Source: Candidatus Foliamicus sp.
Lineage (GTDB): Bacteria; Pseudomonadota; Gammaproteobacteria; Steroidobacterales; Foliamicaceae
DNA length: 64,000 nt
Reading direction: 5' to 3' (one strand)
NCBI GenBank assembly: GCA_965221325.1
Contig: OZ244880.1
Translations under genes and position numbers: made by a program
Notes under the pieces: generated by a model
Told to the model about the DNA's origin: nothing
The model's database searches: none
What the model saw: only the letters and a program-made list of their open reading frames with translations
In this document: positions 3,088-41,134 of the stretch, one piece after another
Position numbering within the stretch: the stretch's first letter is position 1
How the letters are laid out: the number at the start of each line of letters is the position of its first letter

Positions 3088-5241
3088 CTATATCAACTCC
3101 AGGCGCGCATAGGCCACAACCAGCCACTTGGACCCATGGCGCTCGAAGTTGACCTGTACCCGGGCGTGCTCGCCCGAGCCTTCCCGATTGAGCACTACGC
3201 CCTCGCCGAACTTCGGGTGCGAAACCCGCTGACCGAGACCCGGCCCGGGGCCCGAATCCGTCTGCACGTCCGCGTCTGCCGAACCGCCCATGCGCACCGG
3301 CAGCGAAACGCTCGGTGCGGGGCGCACTTCTTCCAGCAGTTCCGCCGGGATTTCCGCGAGAAACCGCGATGGACGATTGCGGCGTTCCTGCCCGCGCAGC
3401 CGGCGCACCTCCGCGTAGCTCAAATTCAGCTCCTTCATGGCGCGCGTAATCCCCACGTAGCAGAGTCGGCGCTCCTCCTCCAGTTCCTCTTCGCTCTGCA
3501 TGGAACGGCTGTGGGGAAACAAGCCTTCCTCCATGCCGGTTAGAAAAACCACCGGGAATTCCAGGCCCTTGGCCGCGTGCATGGTCATAAGCTGCACTGC
3601 GTCTTCGTCTGCGCCGCTCTGATCGTCGCCGCTTTCGAGCGCGGCGTGGGCCAGAAAGGCGTTAAGCGGCGACTCCGGCTGGTCTTCCATGGCTTCTTCG
3701 ATCATTTGCGCCGCGTTGACCAGTTCGTCCAGGTTCTCGACCCGAATGCGGTCGGCTTCGCTGCCCGAAGCCGCCAGCCGCTCCACCAATCCGCTGCCCC
3801 GCACTACGCGGCTGACCTGTGCCTGCAGCTCAAGGCCGGCCACGTCCCCGGCCAGCGATTCAATGAGTGCGGTAAAGCCCTGGAGTGCTCCTGCCGCTCG
3901 TGCGTCGAGAAAGGTCTCCGACTTTTCCGCCGCTTCCCACAAGGTCAGGCCGTGGCGTCTGGCGTACGTGCGGACGTTGTTCAGGGTGGCCCCACCGATG
4001 CGTCGCGGCGGGTTGTTCACCACGCGCTCGAACGAAGGGTCGTCGCCGCGGTTGGCCACCAGCCGCAGATAGGCCAGGGCATCCTTGATCTCGGCCCGTT
4101 CGAAGAACCGCAGGCCGCCATAGACGCGGTAGGGCAAACCCGCTCCGACGAGCGCTTCCTCGAACACCCGCGACTGCGCGTTCGAGCGGTAGAGCACGGC
4201 GAGTTCGTTCAGGCGACCGCCGTGCTGCCGCGCCCGCGACGCCACCTGCTGCGCTTCATCCCACTCGTTGTAGGCGGCGAAAAGGCGCACCGGGCGCCCC
4301 TCGCCGCCGCGCGTCCACAGTTTCTTGCTGAACCGCGATGCGTTATGCGCGATGACCGCGTTGGCCGCCTTCAGTATGGTTCCCGTGGAGCGGTAATTGC
4401 GCTCCAGGCGCACGATGCGCACATCCGTGAAATCCCGCGTGTAGCGACGGATGTTCTCCACCTGCGCGCCGCGCCAGCGGTAGATGGACTGGTCGTCGTC
4501 GCCCACCGCGAAGGGCGTGCCGGTGGTTCCGCACAACTGCCTCAGCCAGTCGTACTGCACCCCGTTGGTGTCCTGAAACTCGTCCACCAGCAGCCAGCGA
4601 AAGCGCTCCCGGTAGCGGTCGAGCAAAGCCGGATGATCCTGCATGAGTTCCGCCGAGCGCAGCAGCAATTCGCCGAAATCCACCAGCCCGTAGGATTCGC
4701 AGCGCTGCTGGTAGAGCGTGTAGAGCTGCCGCTTTTCCTCGCCGTATGTGGTGGCGCTTGCCGGGGCCTGCTCCGGGCGCAGCCCCGCCTCCTTGGCGCC
4801 CGAGATGAAATACTGCAGGGTTTGCGGGGGGATCAGGCGTTCATCCACACGCTCATCCTTCATCACGCGCTTGATCAGCCGCTGTTGGTCGGCCGAGTCC
4901 AGGATCTGAAAATCCTCGCGCAGTCCTGCTTCATGCCAATGGCGGCGCAGCAGTCGGTGCGCCAACCCGTGAAAGGTGCCGATCCACAGCCGCCGCGTAG
5001 GCGTTTGCAACAGCGCTTCAATGCGCGTGCGCATCTCGTTGGCCGCCTTGTTGGTAAAGGTTACGGCGAAGAGGTTCCAGGGCGACGCCCCGTGTGCGCT
5101 GACCAGCCAGGCGGCGCGATGCACGAGCACCCGTGTCTTGCCGCTGCCGGCGCCGGCCAGGACCAGCACGGCCTGGTTGCCCGCCGTTACCGCCTCGCGC
5201 TGCGCCGTGTTCAGCGGCTCAAGAATGCGGGCGGCATCCAT
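3088..5241 (-). CDS. uvrD: DNA helicase II (UvrD/Rep/PcrA superfamily 1)
   Basis: Walker A VLAGAGSGKTRVLVHR, motif II LLVDEFQDTN, motif V/VI TMHAAKGLEFPVVFL. C-terminal GQRVSHPKFGEGVVL tail and 717-aa length fit UvrD. Confidence 0.85.
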   Translation of the reverse strand: MDAARILEPLNTAQREAVTAGNQAVLVLAGAGSGKTRVLVHRAAWLVSAHGASPWNLFAVTFTNKAANEMRTRIEALLQTPTRRLWIGTFHGLAHRLLRRHWHEAGLREDFQILDSADQQRLIKRVMKDERVDERLIPPQTLQYFISGAKEAGLRPEQAPASATTYGEEKRQLYTLYQQRCESYGLVDFGELLLRSAELMQDHPALLDRYRERFRWLLVDEFQDTNGVQYDWLRQLCGTTGTPFAVGDDDQSIYRWRGAQVENIRRYTRDFTDVRIVRLERNYRSTGTILKAANAVIAHNASRFSKKLWTRGGEGRPVRLFAAYNEWDEAQQVASRARQHGGRLNELAVLYRSNAQSRVFEEALVGAGLPYRVYGGLRFFERAEIKDALAYLRLVANRGDDPSFERVVNNPPRRIGGATLNNVRTYARRHGLTLWEAAEKSETFLDARAAGALQGFTALIESLAGDVAGLELQAQVSRVVRGSGLVERLAASGSEADRIRVENLDELVNAAQMIEEAMEDQPESPLNAFLAHAALESGDDQSGADEDAVQLMTMHAAKGLEFPVVFLTGMEEGLFPHSRSMQSEEELEEERRLCYVGITRAMKELNLSYAEVRRLRGQERRNRPSRFLAEIPAELLEEVRPAPSVSLPVRMGGSADADVQTDSGPGPGLGQRVSHPKFGEGVVLNREGSGEHARVQVNFERHGSKWLVVAYARLELI

Positions 5242-6819: not shown

Positions 6820-8319
<1,500 letters not shown>

Positions 8320-30854: not shown

Positions 30855-30880
30855 CCGCTTGCTTCTCACTCTGCAAGCGG
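30855..30880. promoter_or_regulatory. Dyad CCGCTTGC-N10-GCAAGCGG in the divergent SDR/gor intergenic region
   Basis: Perfect 8-bp inverted arms read from the sequence. A second small dyad, GGCAT-N7-ATGCC, follows immediately. Confidence 0.25.
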
Positions 30881-30948
30881 CATTGGCCCGATGCCGGGAA
30901 GCGCCAGGCAGGTGTAGGAGAGTCCTGGAGACGTTATCCTTCCGGCCT

Positions 30949-32292
30949 ATGCGGGAATTCGACCTGGTTGTTGTGGGTGGCGGCAGCGGTGGCCTGGCGA
31001 CCGCTCAACGCGCGGCCGAGCGCGGCGCCCGGGTGGCGCTGATCGAGTCGGGACGTTTGGGGGGCACTTGCGTCAACCGCGGCTGCGTACCCAAGAAGGT
31101 CATGTGGCACGCCGCGGAACTGGCGCGCCAGCTTGCCGACTCCCGCGAGTACGGGTTCCATTTGTCCCTGGAGAGCCACGACTGGTCCGAACTGGTGCGC
31201 CGCCGGGAAAGCTACATCCGCCGTCTGAACGGAATCTACGTAGAAAACCTTCGCCGCCGGGGCGTGGAATATGTGGACGGATTCGCAGCATTTTCCGGCG
31301 CGCGGACTATTGCCGCGAACGGCGAGGAGTACGCCGCGCCGCGCATCCTGATCGCCACCGGGGGCGCGCCCGTGATTCCGGAGATTCCCGGGGCGGAACT
31401 GGGCATTACGTCCGACGATTTCTTCGCGCTGGAAAGCTGTCCGCGCAGGGCAGCCGTGGTGGGCGCCGGATATATCGCCGTGGAACTGGCCGGGATTCTG
31501 CGTGGACTGGGCTCGGAGGTAACGCTGCACCTGCGCCGCAAATCGGTGCTGCGGCGTTTCGACGAGATACTCCAACAGGCCTGTCTTGAGGGACTTGCCG
31601 ACGCGGGCGTGCGCATTGAGACGGATTTTTCGCCGACAGCCGTCGCCCGCAGCCAGAACGGACTGCACGTTACATCTTCCCGAGGCGCAAACAGCGGACC
31701 TTTCGATACGCTGCTTTGGGCCGTGGGCAGGCGGCCGCTAACCGACGATCTCGACTTGGAGACGCCTGGCGTGGCCCGCGATGCGCGCGGCGCGATCAAG
31801 GTGGACCAGTGGCAGGAAACCACCGCCCGTGGCGTGTTCGCCCTGGGCGACGTGACCGGTCGTCACGAGCTTACCCCGGTGGCGATCGCCGCCGGCCGAC
31901 GCTGGGCGGATCGGCAGTTCGGCGGCATGTCCGAACGCCGCATGGACTACACAAACATCCCGACGGTGGTGTTTGCGCATCCGCCACTGGGCTCGGTAGG
32001 GCTTACCGAGGCCGAAGCGCGCGACGCACATGGCGATACGGTGCGCTGTTACCGCTCCGAGTTCGTGCCGCTCTACTACGGCATCGCTGCCCACAAACCC
32101 AAGGCGCGCATGAAGCTGGTCACGGTGGGCGAGGAGCAGCGCGTGGTGGGATGCCACGTGGCCGGCCCGGGCGCGGACGAGATGCTGCAGGGTTTTGCCG
32201 TGGCCATCAGGATGGGCGCCCGCAAAGCAGACCTCGACGACACCGTCGCCATTCATCCCACCGCCGCCGAAGAACTCGTGACCATGCGCTAA
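30949..32292 (+). CDS. gor: Glutathione-disulfide reductase
   Basis: FAD motif VVGGGSGGLA, redox-active GGTCVNRGCVPKK, C-terminal HPTAAEELVTMR. Start at MREFDLVVVG. Confidence 0.9.
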   Translation: MREFDLVVVGGGSGGLATAQRAAERGARVALIESGRLGGTCVNRGCVPKKVMWHAAELARQLADSREYGFHLSLESHDWSELVRRRESYIRRLNGIYVENLRRRGVEYVDGFAAFSGARTIAANGEEYAAPRILIATGGAPVIPEIPGAELGITSDDFFALESCPRRAAVVGAGYIAVELAGILRGLGSEVTLHLRRKSVLRRFDEILQQACLEGLADAGVRIETDFSPTAVARSQNGLHVTSSRGANSGPFDTLLWAVGRRPLTDDLDLETPGVARDARGAIKVDQWQETTARGVFALGDVTGRHELTPVAIAAGRRWADRQFGGMSERRMDYTNIPTVVFAHPPLGSVGLTEAEARDAHGDTVRCYRSEFVPLYYGIAAHKPKARMKLVTVGEEQRVVGCHVAGPGADEMLQGFAVAIRMGARKADLDDTVAIHPTAAEELVTMR

Positions 32293-32391
32293 CCCGGATG
32301 AAGCCTTCGGGCATACCGGTGCGGTCCAGACCTGCTGACCGGTGACTGTGAGGGACCTCGGTCGCTGCCCCTGTCTGCGGCACGAAGCCGC

Positions 32392-32427
32392 CGCTATAGT
32401 CGCTCAAAGCTTCGGTGGCGCTATAGT
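32392..32427. repeat. Direct repeat CGCTATAGT x2 (27-bp spacing) upstream of the 481-aa ORF
   Basis: Copies at 32392-32400 and 32419-32427. Each contains a TATAGT -10-like hexamer. Confidence 0.3.
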
Positions 32428-32462
32428 GGCCTGTACGGAGCCGATCAGCTGGAGTCCAAGTG

Positions 32463-33908
32463 ATGTTCATAGCACGAAATGCTGGTGAGGTGCTGGCGGA
32501 ACACACTGGAGGAAAGACGGAGGACCCCTTCGGCATGCAAACAGGAGTTCGTCCTCTGTGGGCGATGCAGGTCGGCAAGCCGCATCCAACGGGTATCAAG
32601 CTAAACGTCTTGGTTCGCTTGCCACCAAGCGACAAAATCGACAATCAGATTCGCGGAGTCGTCGACGTACCGGGCCACCCTTTTGGAGACGAAGAGAGAT
32701 GCTACTTGGCAAAAGTACTTATCGAGGCTGTTGACGATATTCCGCAATGCAAATTTGAGTATCAAGTAGTGGACTGGGTGGCGACTGAAGGGGGCAAGGG
32801 CATCCAAGTCGCCCAGTGCCGCCCAATAGCGGTCTCAGTTGGTCGAGATTTCGTTAACTTAAGGGTGTTTGAGCCACCAGACATTCAAGAGCCTCTTGAG
32901 AACAGCCAGATAAGTGCAGAGCAGCAAGACGAGTGGATTCGCGAATACGCTGCTAACAGGTACTGTCGGTACCTGACGAGGCAGGAGTTGAACCAGCGTT
33001 TTCAAGATCTGTTGGTGAACATCCAAGTTCTCACACCATCCGGACGATTGGGGTTGAGCACCGACGAGACTTGGTACCGCCTGCTGCAGCACGTTATTGA
33101 CGAGATGCAATTCAGGGGTGAGCCGCCAACCGCTTCTAACCATCACCCTCATGTGCAAAGGTCCCGACCGTTTTTCGACGGTGAATTCTGCCGGAAGGCG
33201 GCGAAAGTGGTTGCTGCGAGTTCCACTGATCAAGACGTGCTCGTAAAGTACGGCAAGCGCGAGCACATGTATTCACTATTCCAGAGGGGCATCGTGTATC
33301 TGAACCCTGCCACCTGGTACAGCGCGTCCGACCACAATCAGGCTATCGAAGACAACGAACTGGCTATTGGCTTCAAGGGTGGATTCATAAGGACCACCCG
33401 TCCTCTGCAGTTTTACGACAGGAACAATGCGCCACCGATGGAAATTGCCGCCCGCGCCGTAGGATTTCGAACGATATACGAGCTTCCAGAGTTGCATAGC
33501 GACCAATTTTGCACTGCCACCATACAAGCACCTACGGACTACTGGATGTTCTGCATGGCCGATATTCTCGACCCAAGGCTCTTCGCCGACTTCCAAGCCG
33601 ATTGCTGCCTCATCATCAAGCGTAGGCCGTTCGCGGAACGCCTGTTGCGGACTGCCGCGGAGCAGCTGACCAATGAAACGTGCTACTTCGACCGCGTCCA
33701 GTATGTGGATCCTCTAGGTGCTTGGCCTGCTAGCACACACGTAACGAATTCCATCCCGCTCCACATGACAAAGGTGTTTCGTTACGCCTATCAGAGGGAG
33801 GCCCGCTTCGCCATTGTCCCCAATGAAGGCCGAGATGACCTGCAACCAAGAGAAATCGAAGTCGGATCAATCTCGGATATTGCCGATCTCGTGCCGCTCA
33901 TGGGCTAA
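32463..33908 (+). CDS. Hypothetical 481-aa protein; C-terminal half weakly DUF2971-like
   Basis: GGAG lies 8 nt before ATG 32463. Intact long ORF in AT-richer DNA. The C-terminal segment LVKYGKREHMYSLFQRGIVYLNPATWYS...EDNE ... YWMFCMAD ... VFRYAYQREARFAIVP resembles the DUF2971 layout, recognised by eye only. Confidence 0.6.
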   Translation: MFIARNAGEVLAEHTGGKTEDPFGMQTGVRPLWAMQVGKPHPTGIKLNVLVRLPPSDKIDNQIRGVVDVPGHPFGDEERCYLAKVLIEAVDDIPQCKFEYQVVDWVATEGGKGIQVAQCRPIAVSVGRDFVNLRVFEPPDIQEPLENSQISAEQQDEWIREYAANRYCRYLTRQELNQRFQDLLVNIQVLTPSGRLGLSTDETWYRLLQHVIDEMQFRGEPPTASNHHPHVQRSRPFFDGEFCRKAAKVVAASSTDQDVLVKYGKREHMYSLFQRGIVYLNPATWYSASDHNQAIEDNELAIGFKGGFIRTTRPLQFYDRNNAPPMEIAARAVGFRTIYELPELHSDQFCTATIQAPTDYWMFCMADILDPRLFADFQADCCLIIKRRPFAERLLRTAAEQLTNETCYFDRVQYVDPLGAWPASTHVTNSIPLHMTKVFRYAYQREARFAIVPNEGRDDLQPREIEVGSISDIADLVPLMG

Positions 33909-34338
33909 TAGGGCGCATACGCCATACATGACCGGGCTGGTGCTGCGCCTCGCGCAATTCACCCGTGCCCCGGTCAATGACCTCGTCGTTTGGGCCGCGC
34001 ATTCCACGAACAGCTTCTCGCCCGCACGTTAGTCTTGGCGCATGACCATGTCCAGCCGGCCTAGCCAGGCGCGATTTTGCTCGCAAAACCAACTGTATTG
34101 GTAGCCGTCGCGGCACGACGACCGATGGATACTCCTGCCGCAGCAGGAACAACTCCGCACCCTTGCTCTGGAGTCAGTGGAAAGCTTCCAATGGACTGGG
34201 TGACCGCTTTCGATCGAAATCAGTGGCAAACTTCATCTGAAATACGCAGGCCCGCCGAAGCTGGCTAGTCCCAGATGTAGTGAACCCGCGCTGCTTCCTG
34301 CCCTTTTGGGCCTGACGTATACTGTCCGCAAGAACAAG

Positions 34339-34632
34339 ATGCCCCAAGCTCGGGCGATACGCCTAACCGCGCCGGATGGCGGGGCGTTATACAAGAGGTC
34401 ATCGACGCGGCGCGACGCCGCAAGGGGGACCGATGCCCATTGGACTGAAGGTCGAGGAACGATCGACCCTATCGCCAGTGCCGTTCGCATCGCGCGGACC
34501 GCGCCCGGCGAAGAAGAACAGCTTGTCGATACGTGCAAGCGCAAGGGAGGCAGGTCCCGAACGCAGAAGATGGGCCTTGAGCGACGGCGGGAAATCGCGA
34601 GAGCCGCCGCCGCATGGCGGGCCAGTACTTGA
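34339..34632 (+). CDS. Small basic protein with C-terminal GGRSRTQKMGLERRREIARAAAAW motif (hypothetical)
   Basis: ATG 34339 follows a TATACT hexamer. The C-terminal motif resembles the GG-K-x-R-x3-L-x2-E-R-x-EIARKAA-x-ARW tails of small bacterial proteins. Stop lies 13 nt before the next ORF. No clear RBS. Confidence 0.3.
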   Translation: MPQARAIRLTAPDGGALYKRSSTRRDAARGTDAHWTEGRGTIDPIASAVRIARTAPGEEEQLVDTCKRKGGRSRTQKMGLERRREIARAAAAWRAST

Positions 34633-34645
34633 CCGGCGCATAGCT

Positions 34646-34921
34646 ATGAAATCCGATAATTGGGCCATCATGGGCGCCGAGGTCGCCATCTTCGCCTTGA
34701 ATATCGCGGCTATGACGGTGCTGACGCTGAGTACAAGCAACCGGCTCGACTGGCTTGAGGCGTCGGTCAACAGCCGCCTGGACTCCATCGACAGACGGCT
34801 GGATTGCTTCAAGGTCGAGCTTGTTCACCTACGCAATGATGTCGGCACGCTCGCCGAGCGTGTCTCACATATCGAAGGGCGGCTGGCCATAGATCGAGCA
34901 GGCGGGCGCGCCGCACCGTGA
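34646..34921 (+). CDS. Small membrane-anchored coiled-coil protein (hypothetical)
   Basis: MKSDNWAIMGAEVAIFALNIAAMTVLTLS (TM) is followed by heptad-like NRLDWLEASVNSRLDSIDRRLDCFKVELVHLRNDVGTLAERVSHIEGRL. Stop overlaps the methyltransferase GTG (GTGA at 34918-34921). No clear RBS. Confidence 0.35.
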   Translation: MKSDNWAIMGAEVAIFALNIAAMTVLTLSTSNRLDWLEASVNSRLDSIDRRLDCFKVELVHLRNDVGTLAERVSHIEGRLAIDRAGGRAAP

Positions 34922-36516
34922 AGTTTCAACCGGACTCGCTGTACTGCGGGGATTGTCTCGACATCATGCGAGCGTGGCCCGACGGCTGCATCGATCTCTG
35001 CTATCTCGACCCGCCGTTCAACTCCAAGACGGACTACAACATCCTGTTCGGGCAGGATCGGGCGCGGACCAATGGCGGCAAGTTCGCCCAATTTGTCGCG
35101 TTCGAGGATACATGGATGTGGGACGATGCCGCTCAGGACCGCGTCGATTCCATTGAGCGCGCAGTCGCGCATCCGGCGCATAAGATCGTCAAGGGTCTGC
35201 GCTACGCGATTGGCGACTGCGGCATGCTCGCCTATCTCTCGTACATGGCCGAGCGCCTGGTCGAAATTAGGCGCGTTCTGAAGCCGACAGGGAGCGTCTA
35301 CCTGCATTGCGACCCCACTGCGAGTCATTACCTCAAAGCCGCATTGGATGGCGTGTTCGGAGCCAAGTGCTTCCTGAACGAAGTAAGCTGGCGACGCACA
35401 ACGACGAAGGGCGACTATCGACAGGGCGCGCTCAACTGGCCGCGCGTACGCGATGTGCTGCTGCATTACGCAAGCGATCCGCGCGGCGGCGGGCGAATGT
35501 TCCGGCAGCCGTTCACCGAATACGATCCCGCCTACATCAAGAGTCACTACTCCATGGTCGAGCCGGACACCGGTCGGCGTTATCGGTTGGACAATTTGAC
35601 CGCGCCAGGCGCGGGCTCACGTGGGCACCCGAAGTACGAACTCATGGGCGTCGAGCGGCACTGGCGATACAACGCCGAGAAAATGGCCGATCTGATCGCG
35701 GCGGGTCGCGTCGTCCAGACCGCGCCCGGTCGGGTACCAGCCTACAAACGATACCTCGACGAAATGCCCGGCGTGGCGGTGGGCGACGACTGGAGCGACA
35801 TCAAACCGATCAATTCTCAGGCAAAGGAACGCTTAGGTTATCCGACTCAAAAGCCCGAGGCGCTGCTGAGGCGTGTCATAGAGGCATCCAGCAACGAAGG
35901 GGACATCGTTCTGGACCCGTTCGCTGGATGTGGCACCACGGTGGTTGCGGCCCGCAATCTTAAGCGTCGTTTCGTCGGAATTGACATCTCGCACTTCGCT
36001 ATCGACATCGTTCGGGAGCGCCGATTGCAGGACAAAAGCATCCCGATCAACGGCTTCCCGGTGGATCTGCCGAGCGCCGAGATGTTGGCGCGGGAGGTCC
36101 CGTTCGAGTTCGAGAAATGGGCGATCACACGGATACCCGGCATGGTGCCGAACGCCGTGCAGATTGGCGATGGTGGTATCGACGGTCGCGGCATAATCCA
36201 CGGAGACGGCTCGCTTGTGCTCGCCCAGGTGAAGGGTGGGCGCTCATTCCAGCTCGGTCACGTCCGGGACTTCCGACACGTTCTAACGCGCGAGCAAGCC
36301 GCCTGCGGCGTGTTCACGACGCTCCGACCTGTCACGTCGCCCAAGGCGAAGGCGGAAGCGAAAGGCGCCGGATATCTCAAGTTCGGTGCGAACCGCTATC
36401 CGGCGGCGCAGTTGTGGTCGATTCAGGACTATTTTCAGGAGCGTCTCCCGATGCTCCCACCTTTGGCCGACCCGTACACCGGGAAGGCCATGCAACTAGA
36501 CATGCTAGCGCATTAG
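34918..36516 (+). CDS. Beta-class N6-adenine/N4-cytosine DNA methyltransferase fused to a C-terminal Mrr-like PD-(D/E)xK nuclease domain
   Basis: Motif IV DPPFN at the N-terminus (GDCLDIMRAWPDGCIDLCYLDPPFN) and motif I GDIVLDPFAGCGTTVVAA after a long insert give beta-class order. C-terminal FEFEKWAI...GDGGIDGRGII...LAQVKGG...GVFTT matches the Mrr_cat pattern. Confidence 0.85.
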   Translation: MKFQPDSLYCGDCLDIMRAWPDGCIDLCYLDPPFNSKTDYNILFGQDRARTNGGKFAQFVAFEDTWMWDDAAQDRVDSIERAVAHPAHKIVKGLRYAIGDCGMLAYLSYMAERLVEIRRVLKPTGSVYLHCDPTASHYLKAALDGVFGAKCFLNEVSWRRTTTKGDYRQGALNWPRVRDVLLHYASDPRGGGRMFRQPFTEYDPAYIKSHYSMVEPDTGRRYRLDNLTAPGAGSRGHPKYELMGVERHWRYNAEKMADLIAAGRVVQTAPGRVPAYKRYLDEMPGVAVGDDWSDIKPINSQAKERLGYPTQKPEALLRRVIEASSNEGDIVLDPFAGCGTTVVAARNLKRRFVGIDISHFAIDIVRERRLQDKSIPINGFPVDLPSAEMLAREVPFEFEKWAITRIPGMVPNAVQIGDGGIDGRGIIHGDGSLVLAQVKGGRSFQLGHVRDFRHVLTREQAACGVFTTLRPVTSPKAKAEAKGAGYLKFGANRYPAAQLWSIQDYFQERLPMLPPLADPYTGKAMQLDMLAH

Positions 36517-36566
36517 ACTGGCTAAAATGCCTGACATATATTGTTGATTGCGCGCCAATTGACGGC

Positions 36567-36879
36567 ATGAACAAGCTATCCGAAACCAAGCGCACCACAA
36601 CCTGACGATGCGCAGGGGATGCGCCGATTTATCCGCCTCACCAACGCGTTCAGCAAGCGAGTCGAGAAGCACACGACGATGCGGAGCCTCTACTTCGTGC
36701 ATTACAATTTCTGCCGCTTTCACCAAACGCTGAAGGTCGCGCCCGCGATGTCGGCCGGACTGAACACCACCTTGCGAGACTACGAATGGATCGTGGTTCT
36801 GATCGACGCCGCAGCGCCGAAGGCTCGGAAGACCGGCCCGAAGCCCGGAAGCGGCGGACGGCACCGTAAAGCAAACTGA
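36567..36879 (+). pseudogene. Internally deleted DDE transposase remnant (IS1-like C-terminus)
   Basis: MNKLSETKRTTT-stop (36567-36605) resembles the N-terminus of a transposase family. ORF 36619..36879 (RLTNAFSKRVEKHTTMRSLYFVHYNFCRFHQTLKVAPAMSAGL) matches only the last ~85 aa. The catalytic core is missing. Confidence 0.6.
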
Positions 36880-37484
36880 TGCACTATCCGCGTAAGCGTT
36901 TCGGAACCGGATTTGAACGCTAGCGTACGCACTTGGTCGCGCTCTTGGCCGGAGGCATACTGGAAGCGCCAAGTGTCGTTGCGTAACCAGTGAGGAACTC
37001 GGGTATCCACTTTCGGCATCCGGGATGGAGTCTACAGCCGCTGATTGGGTCGCACGGGTCGGTGCTTCCACTTTAGCGGGCGCGAGCGTATTTCATGGGC
37101 GTGCGCATTCTTCAGCTGCCATTAACAGCACCGCTTCGCGTCCCGTGCGCTGGCGCCGGGCGAGATTCGGTCCATATTCGGAAAGACGCTCAGACATCGG
37201 AACGTGCGGAGCACGGCCCGTTACACCCGCGATCCGGTCAACCCACCTGCGCGCTTGGCCAAGAGCCTTTGGGTGGATCTAGCGAGTGACGGCGAGTTGG
37301 CGTATTGCAGGGGGCTGCATCTTCGCTGCCTAGACTCCGTACCGCCGATGGCGAAAGGGACGCTGATAGTAGTAGAGCAGCCTTATGCAGCCAGCACTCA
37401 CTAAACAAATAATACCAGTGGTTGACGGGGACTGGGCTGGCGAGCGGGGCACGGGCATCTAAATTTTATCCTCCCGCAATCTTG

Positions 37485-38381
37485 TCATGCCGGCCACCAA
37501 TCACTCTTCGATTTGACGGTCAAAGAAAGGACTACGTCATCATCTCCCTTAACGCTTGAGATAAACCAGTCGTATCGTGGTGCACTCTTCTCAACCAAAG
37601 GACACACGTAGAATGCAAAAAATGTTGCCTTGTTTTCTGCTCCCTGAACGGCGGTCAGGCTTGCGTCGTCTTCGATTAGGTCTACGCAATCTTCTGTGAG
37701 TCCGCCAAATGCGGGAGATTTGATCAGTTCCGCTAGCACATATTTCAAGCCAGGTTCGTGTACAAAGCTCATTACTTTTGGATCAACTTTCACCCCAGAG
37801 ACCGTACGGACACGGCAGATGAATATGCCTTTTGGTTGAATGGCTTCGCCTAAAGATACGCAGTATTGATTGTCTGGGATGTCCTCCTCCATTCGATTCT
37901 GCGGACGAAGGAAGGCTTCACTTCGACTGATGTGAATCCAACCAAGCATCTGCAGAAAAATCTCAGGTTTGTTGTTCAATCTCGTAGGCACAAAGCCGTG
38001 GAGGTTTTTGGCGCTACTCACGAAGGGGTTCTCGGTGCGGCCCGGCAAATCCGTTCCGGAAATATGGAAGTTCCCGTCGGCATGCCAGTGCATTTTCACA
38101 TCTTGCGTGTTGGCTTGCATCATGGTACGCCAAATGTTGTTGCCTAAATATTCGATCGCTATGCCTCCCAGCGAAGCGATATGGTTGTTGACCAAAAATT
38201 CATATTTGGACGGTTGCCCGGCAAGATCCCTCTTTTCGATGAAGCATCGTTTGTTGGGAGCATCGACGTATTTCGGCGGCGCCATTACCGCGAGGCTTTC
38301 ACCTTGATCGCCGATGACAAATCTAAACGCCTTGAACGTGTGTCCCTCATGTTCAAATGCGATAACGCCATTCGTTTCCAT
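37485..38381 (-). CDS. Hypothetical 298-aa protein, no recognisable family
   Basis: GGAAGGA RBS 8 nt before the ATG. Intact ORF in the most AT-rich DNA of the window. No motif I can name. Confidence 0.55.
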   Translation of the reverse strand: METNGVIAFEHEGHTFKAFRFVIGDQGESLAVMAPPKYVDAPNKRCFIEKRDLAGQPSKYEFLVNNHIASLGGIAIEYLGNNIWRTMMQANTQDVKMHWHADGNFHISGTDLPGRTENPFVSSAKNLHGFVPTRLNNKPEIFLQMLGWIHISRSEAFLRPQNRMEEDIPDNQYCVSLGEAIQPKGIFICRVRTVSGVKVDPKVMSFVHEPGLKYVLAELIKSPAFGGLTEDCVDLIEDDASLTAVQGAENKATFFAFYVCPLVEKSAPRYDWFISSVKGDDDVVLSLTVKSKSDWWPA

Positions 38382-38569
38382 TTGCGAATCCTTCCGACTA
38401 AACCGTATCGGGCTCTTTGGAAGCCGATTGCATCTGAGAATCTGGAGCCATGAGACAGTGTAACAGTTATTCCTCGGAGGAACGGGAACGGGTGGTCCAG
38501 CCTGTCGTATGCGATGCAGACGTGGAGCATGTCCTCGGAAAATTCAAACTGCGCGCTGAACCACTGTAG

Positions 38570-38870
38570 AGATTCCAGGACTCAGTGCGTGAGCTGTCGT
38601 TGACGCCGTCCAAAGCTAAGGCAAACCTGAGCTACCTCAACAGCGCCGTTCTGTCCGCCCTGCGTGATCTGCGCGTTGGCTCGGTCGCCCGAGTGTCACC
38701 GGCATTGCCTTAATCTCCCGCACTTACGGGCGCAGAAAGCCGAGCGGCGAACCTGAGTCATGAGATGCTGCGCAACATGTTCGGCTACGCCATCGCGTGG
38801 GGCCCTTGGCGAGAAGCCGTCGGCAACCCAATTGAGGGCATCGGACACTTCAACCGCGCCTCGTTCAATT
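38570..38870 (+). pseudogene. Tyrosine-integrase N-terminal (SAM-like domain) fragment with in-frame stop
   Basis: One frame reads RFQDSVRELSLTPSKAKANLSYLNSAVLSALRDLRVGSVARVSPALP*SPALTGAESRAANLSHEMLRNMFGYAIAWGPWREAVGNPIEGIGHF. The ..LPALG..v..vtr.dv.. and ..AN..l..l..mF..A..WG....NP...i..f pattern is integrase-like. TAA at 38711-38713. Similarity ends near 38870 and no catalytic domain follows. Confidence 0.45.
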
Positions 38871-39607
38871 CGGTTGACCAGAGCTCTCGCAAGCTCCTTG
38901 TTAAGGTACTCACTGGGCGTAGAGGGCATTCCAACATTTTCTGGTGTGTAGCTGGCAACTCTGCGGATATTCTCGAAATCCACGCCATCAAAATGGTTGC
39001 CTAAAATGCGATAGACCTCATTTTCTGGAATGTGCTTTACTGTGCTTACCCACTCTATAGGAAACCCAAGCATACTAACGATGTCGGACAGTTTAAGGTC
39101 GAGGAACTTGAATCCTCCTGTTGCGACAGTGCGTCTTGGACAGGAATGATTTGGAAAAGCGTTTGCACACTTGAGGACAATACGCGCAAGCTTACCGAGA
39201 TGCTCAAGGCAACAATCAACAACATCTCGGTGGAGAAGCGCTTTAGGAACCGCCTGTTTATTTCCAGCAAATCTATAGCTCCAAAGCAAATTCCCTTCAC
39301 AATCTTTACTCGTTGTCCCAACCAAGGAAACTCGTCCTTCTTTCTGCGAAAAATTCCTCAACTCCAAAAAATACTTCATTCCGGCATCTTCCCTCATTTT
39401 CTTTCGGCGTTTTACCCACCATTCCTTGAATCCAGGGACCCTTCGCATTTCTTTCTGAAGCAAAAAAGTTACACTTCGGGCAGCCGATAGAAATGCGTTA
39501 AATTCATATGTGAAGTTCTCCCCATTCAGCGCTCGTAATCTGCGCGCAAAATTTTCGGCTTCGAGAATTTTTTCTTCAACCAACAAAAGGCTGTTTAACT
39601 GGGCCAT
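38696..39607 (-). CDS. Hypothetical ~303-aa protein; the 3' ~58 codons run antisense through the integrase remnant
   Basis: ATG 39605-39607 follows a purine-rich stretch (the ORF-track start at 39628 is TTG). The N-terminal helical region has FNAFLSAARSVTFLLQKE and LELRNFSQKEG. The AT-rich body ends near 38880, but the reading frame continues into GC-rich DNA to the stop at 38696. Confidence 0.5.
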   Translation of the reverse strand: MAQLNSLLLVEEKILEAENFARRLRALNGENFTYEFNAFLSAARSVTFLLQKEMRRVPGFKEWWVKRRKKMREDAGMKYFLELRNFSQKEGRVSLVGTTSKDCEGNLLWSYRFAGNKQAVPKALLHRDVVDCCLEHLGKLARIVLKCANAFPNHSCPRRTVATGGFKFLDLKLSDIVSMLGFPIEWVSTVKHIPENEVYRILGNHFDGVDFENIRRVASYTPENVGMPSTPSEYLNKELARALVNRIERGAVEVSDALNWVADGFSPRAPRDGVAEHVAQHLMTQVRRSAFCARKCGRLRQCR

Positions 39608-39760
39608 TCTGCTCTCTTCCTCGATCAATCCCAGAAGACTTTATCGTCGTATGGAGTGTTCCGGGAATAGTTGACACCATCGCGCCTCAAAGTGAGGTTG
39701 CTTCAAAGGCTTCGGGGAGTGACACCGCCAAGATGGCTATTGTCCATGTCGTCTCCGGCG

Positions 39761-40213
39761 TCAGTAGCCCATGTCCAGAACCTGGGCATCTGCGGCCAGT
39801 TTGTCAAGCGCCCGGCGCCGGCCCGCATCCGTCGTGTTCTTGTAGCGCATGATGGCGTCGGAATGGACGCGGCGGTGCGTTCCGACCTTGTGAAAGGGGA
39901 TGGTGCCCGATTCGAGAAGCTTGACGAGGAAGGGGCGCGAGACATTGAGTAAGTCGGCCGCCTGCTGGGTGGTTAGCTTGGTGTCCTTGCGAATCACTGC
40001 GACCGAGCTGCCAGACGCTATACCCTCAAGAGCTTCCAGCAGCATGTCGCCGGCCGATGCCGGCAGCTTGATTGCCTCGTCTCCGTGAGCGTCGCTGACA
40101 AGGAGCGATGGGGCGGGGTCCGCGCCCAGCAAAGCGCGCAGGCGTTCACTTGATTCTTGTGCGATCTCGGCATCCGCTTTCGAAGGAAGGATTGAGTGTG
40201 TCTGCATGTTCAT
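39761..40213 (-). CDS. Excisionase-family (HTH_17/MerR-like) DNA-binding protein, antitoxin-type
   Basis: LTTQQAADLLNVSRPFLVKLLESGTIPFHKVGTHRRVHSDAIMRYK is the excisionase-type HTH. The 150-aa layout ending LDKLAADAQVLDMGY resembles antitoxins paired with PIN toxins. Confidence 0.65.
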   Translation of the reverse strand: MNMQTHSILPSKADAEIAQESSERLRALLGADPAPSLLVSDAHGDEAIKLPASAGDMLLEALEGIASGSSVAVIRKDTKLTTQQAADLLNVSRPFLVKLLESGTIPFHKVGTHRRVHSDAIMRYKNTTDAGRRRALDKLAADAQVLDMGY

Positions 40214-40260
40214 TATTCATCCCCGCGCCTCTGCGCGGCTTCACGGCCACCCTAGCGGCT

Positions 40261-40281
40261 GATATTGCTAAACGCAATATC
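40261..40281. promoter_or_regulatory. Dyad GATATTGC-N5-GCAATATC, candidate operator upstream of the HTH gene
   Basis: Perfect 8-bp inverted arms centred about 58 bp upstream of the start codon at 40213. Confidence 0.35.
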
Positions 40282-40321
40282 CGAAAAGCCTGGCACGATT
40301 GGAATAGCAGATGACGACCAA

Positions 40322-41134
40322 TTAGCCGCCGCGCGGACTCAGCAGTTCCTGGGTGTCGGGGCGCTGTCCATGCCAGATTGCAAAGCTTTCGGCCGCTTGT
40401 TCCACCAGCATTCCCCATCCGTCGTGGATCGAACGTGCCTTTCCCTGGCGCGCCCAGGCCGCAAAGGCCTCGGCTGCCGGCCCGTAGGCCAGGTCGATGC
40501 AATGCGCGCCTGCGGCCGCCGAATGATCAATCGTAGGCGCGGTGCCCGTCATGCCGGCGGAACTGGCATTGATCACCAGATCTGCGCGCGGCGGAGTCGC
40601 CGCGCCCTGTTCGGCCACCTGGATGGCGCCCAGGGGTGCGAAGCGGCGCGCCAGGTCCAGTGCGCGGTCGCGGGTGCGGTTGACCAGCGTGATCGAGGCG
40701 ATGTTGGCTTCGAACAAGGCGGGGATCAAGCCACGCGCAGCGCCGCCGGCTCCGAGCAGCAGCAGCGTTGCGCCCGCGAGTTCGAGGCCGAGATTGCAGC
40801 GCAAGTGGCGGAGCAGGCCGGAGCCGTCGGTGTTGTCGCCATGAATGCGATCCTCATCACCGACTGTGAGGGTGTTGGCAGCTCCCGCCAGCCGGGCCCC
40901 GGAACCGAGGGAGTTGCTGAGTGCCGCCGCCTCCTCCTTGAGCGGCACGGTGATGTTGCATCCCCGCCCGCCTTCCTGCGCGAAGCGGCTCACTGCTTCG
41001 GCCAATAAGCCTTGGCGGACCTCCACGCGCCGGTATTCGAGGGCAATGCCGAGTTGCGATGCAAAGCGGCGATGAATTTCGGGCGAGCGGCTGTGACCGA
41101 TCGGATGGCCCATTACGCAGAAGATTGCCGGCAT
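40322..41134 (-). CDS. aroE: Shikimate dehydrogenase
   Basis: FCVMGHPIGHSRSPEIH N-terminal motif, NITVPLKE, GAGGAARG NADP site, 270 aa. Confidence 0.9.
   Translation of the reverse strand: MPAIFCVMGHPIGHSRSPEIHRRFASQLGIALEYRRVEVRQGLLAEAVSRFAQEGGRGCNITVPLKEEAAALSNSLGSGARLAGAANTLTVGDEDRIHGDNTDGSGLLRHLRCNLGLELAGATLLLLGAGGAARGLIPALFEANIASITLVNRTRDRALDLARRFAPLGAIQVAEQGAATPPRADLVINASSAGMTGTAPTIDHSAAAGAHCIDLAYGPAAEAFAAWARQGKARSIHDGWGMLVEQAAESFAIWHGQRPDTQELLSPRGG

Follow-up and report, generated by a model that had tools for sequence, protein, structure and literature searches.

A Mod-like methyltransferase fused to an Mrr-family domain in the probable remains of an IS1-family cargo element of Candidatus Foliamicus

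Genes and features at the locus

Three open reading frames (ORFs) follow one another on the plus strand between positions 34339 and 36516 of a 64,000-nucleotide stretch of contig OZ244880.1 (assembly GCA_965221325.1, Candidatus Foliamicus sp.), which is referred to here as the window. The third and largest encodes a 532-amino-acid (aa) protein in which a DNA methyltransferase is fused to a C-terminal domain of the Mrr nuclease family; protein and gene are called the methylase below. The locus is probably what is left of a transposable element, and the methylase may be a restriction-modification (RM) enzyme made of one chain. The following features were delineated.

34339-34632, plus strand: ORF1 as first drawn; a real open reading frame, not a gene
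34339-34432, plus strand: N-terminal part of the drawn ORF1, probably non-coding leader sequence (no counterpart in homologs, flat codon-position GC, uncalled in public records)
34433-34632, plus strand: frameshifted remnant of a leader gene (ORF1 family), assigned by homology and a joined-frame profile match
34646-34921, plus strand: ORF2, small membrane protein of 91 aa (coding-type GC, NCBI gene call, 13 distant homologs)
34918-36033, plus strand: methyltransferase module, residues 1-372 of the 532-aa protein (Pfam PF01555, sequence matches in the PDB, structural neighbours)
36034-36516, plus strand: C-terminal Mrr-family domain, residues 373-532 (Mrr_cat score, fold model, motifs)
36616-36879, plus strand: C-terminal portion, about 80 codons, of an IS1-family transposase (tblastn)
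36871-36889, minus strand: right terminal inverted repeat (IRR), GGATAGTGCATCAGTTTGC, assigned by its match to the family repeat and its position relative to the transposase end

The first-pass annotation, made from the letters alone, had described three tightly packed genes, and the arrangement is as described: ORF1 stops at 34632, ORF2 begins with an ATG at 34646 after a gap of 13 nucleotides (nt), and ORF2 overlaps the methylase in a GTGA, with the GTG start of the latter at 34918. What did not hold is ORF1 as a gene, as it is frameshifted, has been left uncalled in the public records and shows a flat distribution of GC over the three codon positions (0.64/0.66/0.66), compared with 0.62/0.46/0.73 for ORF2 and 0.64/0.45/0.75 for the methylase. 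NCBI lists the 532-aa protein as a “site-specific DNA-methyltransferase” and ORF2 as a “hypothetical protein”. No AGGAGG-like site stands at a normal distance before ATG 34339, ATG 34646 or GTG 34918, in agreement with the earlier remarks that the methylase has no visible Shine-Dalgarno sequence and that the small ORFs lack ribosome-binding sites; the suspicion that both small ORFs might be unreal applies to ORF1 only, since ORF2 has the GC profile of a coding sequence and has homologs. A Shine-Dalgarno sequence is missing from the methylase both in the window and in the locus L081, which makes translational coupling to the upstream gene plausible. L081, whose methylase (P0002) is 71% identical, is the closest intact relative with context, and there the order of small gene, slot gene, methylase and transposase recurs, the slot being the place occupied by ORF2 in the window. 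In that sense the packing goes beyond chance.

The methyltransferase and its C-terminal domain

The methyltransferase module matches Pfam N6_N4_Mtase (PF01555) with 132.3 bits against a cut-off of 26.7 over residues 25-366. Motif IV (DPPF, residues 31-34, positions 35008-35019) precedes motif I (DPFAGCGTT, residues 333-341, positions 35914-35940), which is the order of the beta class, and between them lies a recognition domain at about residues 156-300 (35383-35817). Sequence matches in the PDB are CcrM as the best (E 1e-21), M.BceJIV, MboIIA, RsrI and a Mod protein, and the best structural neighbours of the full-length model (predicted local distance difference test, pLDDT, 86) are EcoP15I Mod (E 3e-18) and 6k0w, another Mod-like enzyme. 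The methylase is a Type III Mod-like enzyme of the beta class and, because of its DPPF motif and its similarity to adenine methylases, probably forms N6-methyladenine. Identity to the homolog P0003 over residues 1-155, 156-300, 301-372 and 373-532 is 77, 29, 93 and 90%, and to P0005 it is 54, 79, 72 and 46%; judged from this mosaic, relatives recombine with one another and swap the recognition domain in the centre of the protein. The public gene calls of P0003 (L082:4955) and P0004 (L084:4953) start 15-16 codons too late, the true start being an upstream GTG with the conserved sequence (V/M)(K/D)F(Q/R)PDSLYCGDC, which follows the preceding stop after 13 nt or 4 nt.

The C-terminal domain matches Mrr_cat (PF04471) with 23.6 bits against a cut-off of 21 over residues 413-483 (homologs reach 25.8-41.7 bits) and carries all three motifs of the Mrr type: motif I with F398-E399 (the Glu at 36112-36114), motif II with D418-G-G-I-D422 (36169-36183), which includes the Mrr-specific first Asp, and motif III with Q437-V-K439 (36226-36234). 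These motifs were defined for Mrr and LlaGI, with mutagenesis of the Mrr-family nuclease of LlaGI, as a Glu with an adjacent Phe, an extra Asp four residues before the catalytic Asp and linked to it by Gly, and Q-x-K (PMC2790908). A model of the domain (pLDDT 90) adopts the alpha/beta core fold of restriction endonucleases. Foldseek matches it to phage proteins named “restriction endonuclease” (E 1e-4, TM-score 0.55) and, more weakly, to EcoO109I, Rpb5-N, Can2 and Ecl18kI; structural matches in the PDB for the domain taken alone are weak, with a best E of 4e-3, and a profile search of the PDB by sequence gave no matches for it. The beta-class order with a central recognition domain and the Mrr-type catalytic pattern had both been proposed in the first-pass annotation and have stood up to profile scores, domain mosaicism and motif analysis, and the catalytic residues are in place in the alignment.

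Of 207 homologs, at least 202 retain D-x-G-x-D. At motif III, 120 have QxK, 70 have SxK and 2 have ExK, and at motif I, 122 have Glu and 79 have Gln. Both Asp residues and the Lys are essential in LlaGI, where the E-to-A and Q-to-A mutants keep partial activity (PMC2790908). The residues conserved in the present family are the same two Asp and the Lys, and the variable ones are those at the Glu and Gln positions. A chromosomal homolog from Candidatus Rariloculaceae (L039:3974-5347) has the same recognition domain and, in place of the Mrr domain, an HNH endonuclease (E 3e-14). This exchange for a non-homologous nuclease speaks for DNA cleavage as the purpose of the C-terminal module.

The family is large and scattered. 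The protein search returned at least 8000 significant matches, and at least 580 were confirmed among species-representative genomes from many phyla. Homologs also occur on plasmids and, in full length, in 29 phage genomes, with 22 Streptomyces and 5 Mycobacterium phage genomes among them. One phage protein, gp48 of Streptomyces phage Hippo (L176:2971-4614), is a fusion of 46% identity by BLASTP which has SVK at motif III and adjoins a serine integrase. The methylase gene is solitary, as seen from the 146 flanking ORFs of homologous loci: they match 132 Pfam families, each of which is found next to 3 members at most, and housekeeping genes are frequent among them. No recurrent neighbour cluster, conserved partner nuclease, Res or helicase was found among these 146 neighbours.

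Several known RM systems share parts with this protein. As in Type III systems (EcoP15I Mod2Res1), the methylase module, structurally closest to EcoP15I Mod, has the beta-class order and a central recognition domain. The Res subunit of Type III also ends in a PD-(D/E)xK nuclease (PMC3424549). Unlike in Type III, there is no Res or helicase motor in the low-GC island around the locus (described below) or among the neighbours of homologs, and the nuclease fold is fused to the Mod-like protein itself. Type ISP enzymes such as LlaGI and LlaBIII are proteins of about 1500 aa with a methyltransferase of the gamma class. What they share with the window protein is a chain that carries, besides the methyltransferase, an Mrr-family domain whose motifs are identical (E; D-x-G-x-D; Q-x-K). 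In Type ISP, this domain is a nuclease that restricts unmodified DNA within a polypeptide that also methylates (PMC2790908, PMC3553950), and it stands at the N-terminus, followed by a helicase-like motor, the methyltransferase and the target-recognition domains (PMC3553950). By contrast, the window protein has only 532 aa, is of the beta class, carries the nuclease domain at its C-terminus and has no motor.

Type IIG/IIC enzymes are of the gamma class and have about 900-1000 aa. In MmeI and BpuSI, which are encoded by solitary genes, one chain holds an N-terminal PD-ExK nuclease followed by the methyltransferase and recognition domains, and changes of specificity alter both activities (PMC2582602, PMC3185434). 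Both domain order and methylase class differ from those of the window protein, for whose family cleavage is a prediction, and what is shared is the idea of restriction and modification in one chain. CcrM and other solitary beta-class adenine methyltransferases provide the best sequence match in the PDB and likewise have an extra C-terminal domain contacting DNA; unlike the domain described here, that of CcrM is SAND/PWWP-like without a nuclease fold, and a large central recognition domain is absent. Type II RM systems with a controller (C) protein differ in that no small helix-turn-helix (HTH) protein is found upstream in the window. The window protein combines parts of Type III (Mod) and Type ISP (Mrr nuclease) without their motors, and while it belongs to neither Type III nor Type ISP nor Type IIG, it may work like them.

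That the 532-aa protein is a self-contained RM enzyme has, on these grounds, about an even chance of being correct. A more tentative proposal, possible rather than probable, is that the whole family forms a very large unrecognised class of minimal single-chain RM enzymes, in which the recognition domain of a Mod-like beta-class methylase would also aim an Mrr-type (occasionally HNH) nuclease without a motor or partner gene, in a format compact enough for transport by a transposon. Some of the evidence weighs against the nuclease reading. The Mrr_cat score of the window protein is marginal, only one of the 207 homologs shows the HNH replacement, about a third of the homologs (~70/207) have Gln and Ser at motifs I and III and fit the Pfam “inactive” NA-iREase1 better than Mrr_cat, and all public annotation names these proteins methyltransferases only. 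The literature searched yielded no experimental work on nuclease activity in the methylase-Mrr family, nor any paper on a methylase-Mrr fusion or on “Foliamicus”.

The strongest alternative, a serious contender falling somewhat short of an even chance, draws on the Gln/Ser homologs and on the naming of these proteins as methyltransferases. The Mrr-like domain would then not cut, and the protein would be an orphan methyltransferase which uses the nuclease fold as a module for non-specific DNA binding or for dimerisation; on mobile elements and phages it would protect their DNA from host restriction or serve epigenetic regulation. CcrM offers a precedent: in this methylase of the beta class, the C-terminal domain binds DNA, is not catalytic and is essential (PMC6787082). 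Where the family is present in phage genomes it is their only methylase-like gene. However, D418, D422 and K439 vary little or not at all from phylum to phylum; conserved acidic residues are difficult to reconcile with a surface that only binds DNA, and the conserved residues are those needed by LlaGI for cleavage. The Gln/Ser subfamily was initially considered as proof of a non-catalytic domain, and this argument was dropped in view of the LlaGI mutagenesis: given the partial activity of the E-to-A and Q-to-A mutants and the occurrence of Ser at motif III in active Type II enzymes (PMC2790908), such proteins are not necessarily dead. The HNH nuclease of the L039 relative also speaks against this alternative, as does the shuffling of recognition domains, which is typical of defence enzymes. 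The reading as a single-polypeptide RM enzyme, already put forward in the first-pass annotation, is reasonable in view of the motifs and of the absence of a separate conserved nuclease partner; it is strengthened, though unproven. A role of the small upstream ORFs as its accessory partners is not supported, as set out below.

The remains of a cargo-carrying IS1-family element

One trace of the element is found downstream of the methylase. Translated, 36616-36879 is 73% identical to residues 215-293 of the L081 transposase (tblastn), and 60% and 56% identical to the proteins of L091 and L092, both annotated IS1 family transposases near plasmid homologs of ORF1. About 214 N-terminal codons have been deleted in the window and the DDE core with them, which leaves the C-terminal ~80 residues; an 86-aa ORF (36619-36879) lies within the remnant. 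The IRR overlaps the transposase stop codon and has 3 mismatches to the family repeat GGTAGTGTCTCAGTTTG. The repeat pattern occurs twice in the window against 0.07 matches expected, and the position of the IRR relative to the transposase end is the same in L081, in L092 and in many metagenome copies.

At the other end of the locus, ORF1 leads to the same kind of element. In L081, a 72-aa gene and a 92-aa gene lie directly upstream of the methylase, and the 72-aa protein (L081:4193-4411) matches the C-terminal 55 residues of ORF1 by BLASTP. Alphaproteobacterial plasmid homologs of ORF1 have 76-78 aa and start with MPTGPKGxKRPAD. The N-terminus typical of the family (MPxGxK..R) is present in the window in the +1 frame, that of the ORF at 34376, as MPIGLKVEER from an ATG at 34433 with an AGGGGG site 4 nt before it, and a shift of 1 nt at about 34460-34463 is needed to enter the drawn frame (IDPIASAVRIAR...AAAWRAST, stop 34630-34632). 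Against a hidden Markov model (HMM) of 82 homologs, ORF1 as drawn scores 29.4 bits, with its residues 42-94 matching profile positions 12-73 only, while the joined frames score 38.7 bits in a full-length match over positions 1-73. In the window copy, the family-invariant P5, G7, K9, P11 and terminal RW have been lost as well, and the GGK region is shorter by 8 residues. Going by the +1-frame N-terminus, the full-length match of the joined frames and the lost invariant residues, ORF1 is not a gene as drawn but what a frameshift and further degeneration have left of a small gene, conserved elsewhere, of ~75 aa. The leader-gene family itself has no Pfam or NCBIfam model; ORF1 and ORF2 gave no meaningful matches in Pfam, NCBIfam, PADLOC and PHROGs, and ORF1, corrected ORF1 and ORF2 gave neither an HTH nor a significant match in Pfam, NCBIfam or PADLOC. 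Word-index searches with ORF1 and ORF2 returned only the query itself or nothing, which reflects a limit of sensitivity, as exhaustive phmmer and neighbour-guided comparison found both families.

In L081, repeats of the type GGTAGTGTCTCAGTTTG (left inverted repeat, IRL, at 4048 and IRR at 7261, 17 of 18 positions matching) enclose the leader gene, a DM9 gene, the methylase and the transposase. The L081 transposase (L081:6344-7603) has lost its stop inside the right repeat (TGA to TGG) and reads through into a segment of a group II intron maturase (GIIM). In metagenomes, the leader protein has at least 468 relatives, 80 of which were analysed. An IRL lies within 1 kb in 41 of the 47 loci with enough upstream sequence, a same-strand transposase follows in 22 of the 26 with enough downstream sequence, and 22 inverted-repeat pairs spanning 0.8-4.3 kb were found among the 80 loci. 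Of 14 pairs inspected, 11 lie between perfect 8-bp duplications, and a twelfth (L108) has a near-match. The layout of intact relatives is a left repeat, the ~75-aa leader gene, variable cargo, an IS1-family transposase in which Pfam DDE_Tnp_IS1 is present, and a right repeat over the transposase stop, flanked by 8-bp target duplications. The cargo between leader gene and transposase is highly variable, with 51 ORFs in 26 clusters on either strand. Upstream of the other close relatives of the methylase, too, traces of the leader gene or the left repeat were found: a left-repeat-like site 230 nt upstream with an internally deleted leader gene in L082 and L083, an N-terminal remnant in L084 and split copies in L085.

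Examples of such cargo elements are L091:3735-7958, L093:5737-9609, L106:670-3603, L108:384-2741 and about 20 further loci among L093-L172. Their repeats of 21-22 bp read GGTAGTGTCTCAGTTTGAAAT and their leader protein follows the pattern MPTGPKGxKRPAD...GGKxRA..ERRkEIAkKAA..RW, for one member of which NCBI has the name “RNA-binding protein”. A transposase seems to be absent from some of the repeat pairs of 0.8-1.4 kb. Immediately beyond the element, a pair of RES toxin and Xre-MbcA-ParS antitoxin is found on two replicons that are not related, the Boseongicola chromosome (L082:6661-7628) and an Acidiphilium plasmid (L092:6339-7177).

IS derivatives that carry passenger genes are described as transporter insertion sequences (tIS) (PMC9330008). 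The intact relatives are like tIS in having an IS1-family DDE transposase, inverted repeats of ~22 bp, 8-bp target duplications and passenger genes inside the repeats. Unlike described tIS, the group has a conserved leader gene without a family model, and the copy in the window is a fossil of which only the right end is left. No description of this leader-gene-bearing IS1 group was found in the literature searched, and the term ISMhu11, which stands for the cargo-bearing IS1 subgroup, does not occur there. The locus is accordingly likened to a transporter IS with a defence-type or modification gene, of which it would be a decayed member. That the window segment 34433-36889 represents the remains of a decayed cargo-carrying IS1-family transposable element is considered probable. 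The sequence also shows the element to be immobile, because the leader gene is frameshifted, the transposase is cut to ~80 codons and the left repeat is unrecognisable.

Other observations count against this assignment. Pattern search, local alignment and a best-mismatch scan found neither a left inverted repeat nor an 8-bp target duplication in the window, and the assignment draws on the right end, on the remnants of two genes and on the gene order shared with a single intact relative, L081. That locus, too, is without a target duplication, which, together with the readthrough of its transposase, suggests that its element went into another mobile element or was struck by one. The 80 leader-gene loci sampled include none with this methylase, so that methylase cargo is rare. 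A 14-nt inverted pair at 33962/37442 was considered for the element ends and was judged to be due to chance.

The apparent frameshift could, less likely, be an assembly error. In that case ORF1 would be intact in the living organism, the shift at ~34460 would be a consensus error of long reads, and the leader gene would still be expressed in an element less decayed than proposed. The source is a metagenome-assembled genome with contig names typical of long-read assemblers, and in L085, another such assembly, two copies of the leader gene are both split between frames. A CGATCG palindrome adjoins the shift site in the window, and palindromes of this kind, if methylated, are sites where base-callers can err. 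Nevertheless, two public records are identical over 13.6 kb including the frameshift site, ORFs as long as 700-1048 aa run without interruption in other parts of the window, and the invariant residues and part of the GGK region have been lost from the leader copy apart from the frameshift. With the truncated transposase and the absent left repeat as independent signs of decay, an intact leader gene is unlikely.

The hydropathy profile of ORF2 shows a single hydrophobic stretch, at about residues 7-31, and after it a helical segment of polar character, as the earlier reading of one transmembrane helix plus a coiled-coil segment had it: the helix is N-terminal, the coiled coil is of the RxDxxxxRxD type and the C-terminus carries an ERVSHIEGRL motif. 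Exhaustive phmmer found 13 distant relatives (E 8e-6 to 9e-4) which share the transmembrane helix, the RxDxxxxRxD repeats and an ERVSxIEGxLG tail. The best Pfam match, DUF7310, reaches 13.6 bits against a cut-off of 40, and no curated family fits. ORF2 homologs with usable context (that of two was too short) are multi-copy and have the surroundings of ordinary chromosomal genes, in which sulfatase-maturing, glyoxalase and DUF6152 genes adjoin them and methylases are absent; in L173 (2162-2542, 5001-5444 and 6887-7327), three ORF2-type paralogs lie within 5 kb, interleaved with FGE-sulfatase-domain genes.

In relatives of the methylase, the slot taken by ORF2 holds other genes or none. It encodes a secreted DM9 protein with a signal peptide in L081 (4424-4702) and a non-homologous 68-aa coiled coil, tail-anchored by a C-terminal transmembrane helix, in L084 (4742-4948; methylase 69% identical), and it is empty inside the element of L082 (methylase 72% identical). 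The three slot proteins of window, L081 and L084 are unrelated to one another, yet all are envelope proteins and two are membrane coiled coils. In the Boseongicola genome of L082, a gene of the ORF2 family (L082:3342-3680, minus strand) lies 1.3 kb upstream of the methylase. By tblastn, none of 80 more distant methylase loci (43-60% identity) has a relative of ORF1 or ORF2. Because of this and of the changing slot, ORF2 is, on comparative grounds, a real-looking gene and a co-passenger, not a conserved partner of the methylase; the envelope-protein pattern and the nearby ORF2 homolog of L082 do not outweigh the negative co-occurrence data. The membrane-tethered accessory partner entertained in the first-pass annotation is thereby not supported, and the co-occurrence check named there came out negative.

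A dedicated operon, in which the membrane coiled coil and perhaps the basic small protein would regulate, localise or assist the enzyme, could draw on the tight packing with its GTGA overlap, the missing Shine-Dalgarno sequence of the methylase, the envelope proteins in all three filled slots and the ORF2 homolog near the L082 methylase, but it is very improbable, as the slot proteins are mutually unrelated, the L082 homolog of ORF2 is placed beyond the left repeat and runs on the other strand, genes of the ORF2 family occur in several copies where there is no methylase, the distant loci lack both small genes and ORF1 is the pseudogene of an IS-element gene that mostly occurs without a methylase.

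Genomic setting, proposed course of events and meaning

The locus is part of a lower-GC island (32300-40300) with 45-60% GC against 62-70% in its flanks, a mosaic of at least three compositions bounded by a glutathione-reductase-like gor (30859-32292) and by aroE (40322-41134, minus strand). The island also contains singleton “hypothetical” proteins of 481 aa (32463-33908), 298 aa (37485-38381, minus strand) and 303/310 aa (38696-39628, minus strand), the last with a precomputed Pfam match to Phage_lambda_Ea47, as well as a 150-aa excisionase-type HTH_17 protein (39761-40213, minus strand). A PADLOC match of the latter to “mad1” was set aside, being due to the HTH_17 domain only, with the other MADS components absent. 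No integrase or tRNA was found in the island and none of its proteins has a helicase domain. The three unknown proteins lie outside the element and differ from it in GC; they have no PDB or family matches, and one of them may be a nuclease.

The following course of events would account for the locus. An IS1-family transporter IS would have landed in the low-GC island between gor and aroE and then decayed, while its cargo of ORF2 and the 532-aa methylase is still intact and looks selected, the two probably being co-translated via the GTGA overlap. In the enzyme, one recognition domain would direct both the methylation of host DNA and the Mrr-type cleavage of unmethylated incoming DNA, and no helicase motor of the Type III or Type ISP kind would be needed. 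Such a single-gene unit would be able to spread on transposons, phages and plasmids.

For the window, this means that the packing of three genes would be what a dead transposon has left of its layout, and the membrane coiled coil would be a co-passenger instead of a new accessory factor of RM. Beyond the window, the locus draws attention to two under-described things, the methylase-nuclease family and the IS1 cargo elements marked by a leader gene. The conserved 75-aa gene, itself unannotated, marks widespread cargo-carrying IS1 elements and thus offers a handle for finding passenger genes. If the C-terminal domain cuts DNA, thousands of annotated orphan methyltransferases would be complete one-gene defence systems, and both methylome-based counts of “orphans” and censuses of defence islands would need to be corrected. 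Enzymes of ~530 aa with swappable recognition domains would then also be attractive as programmable reagents.

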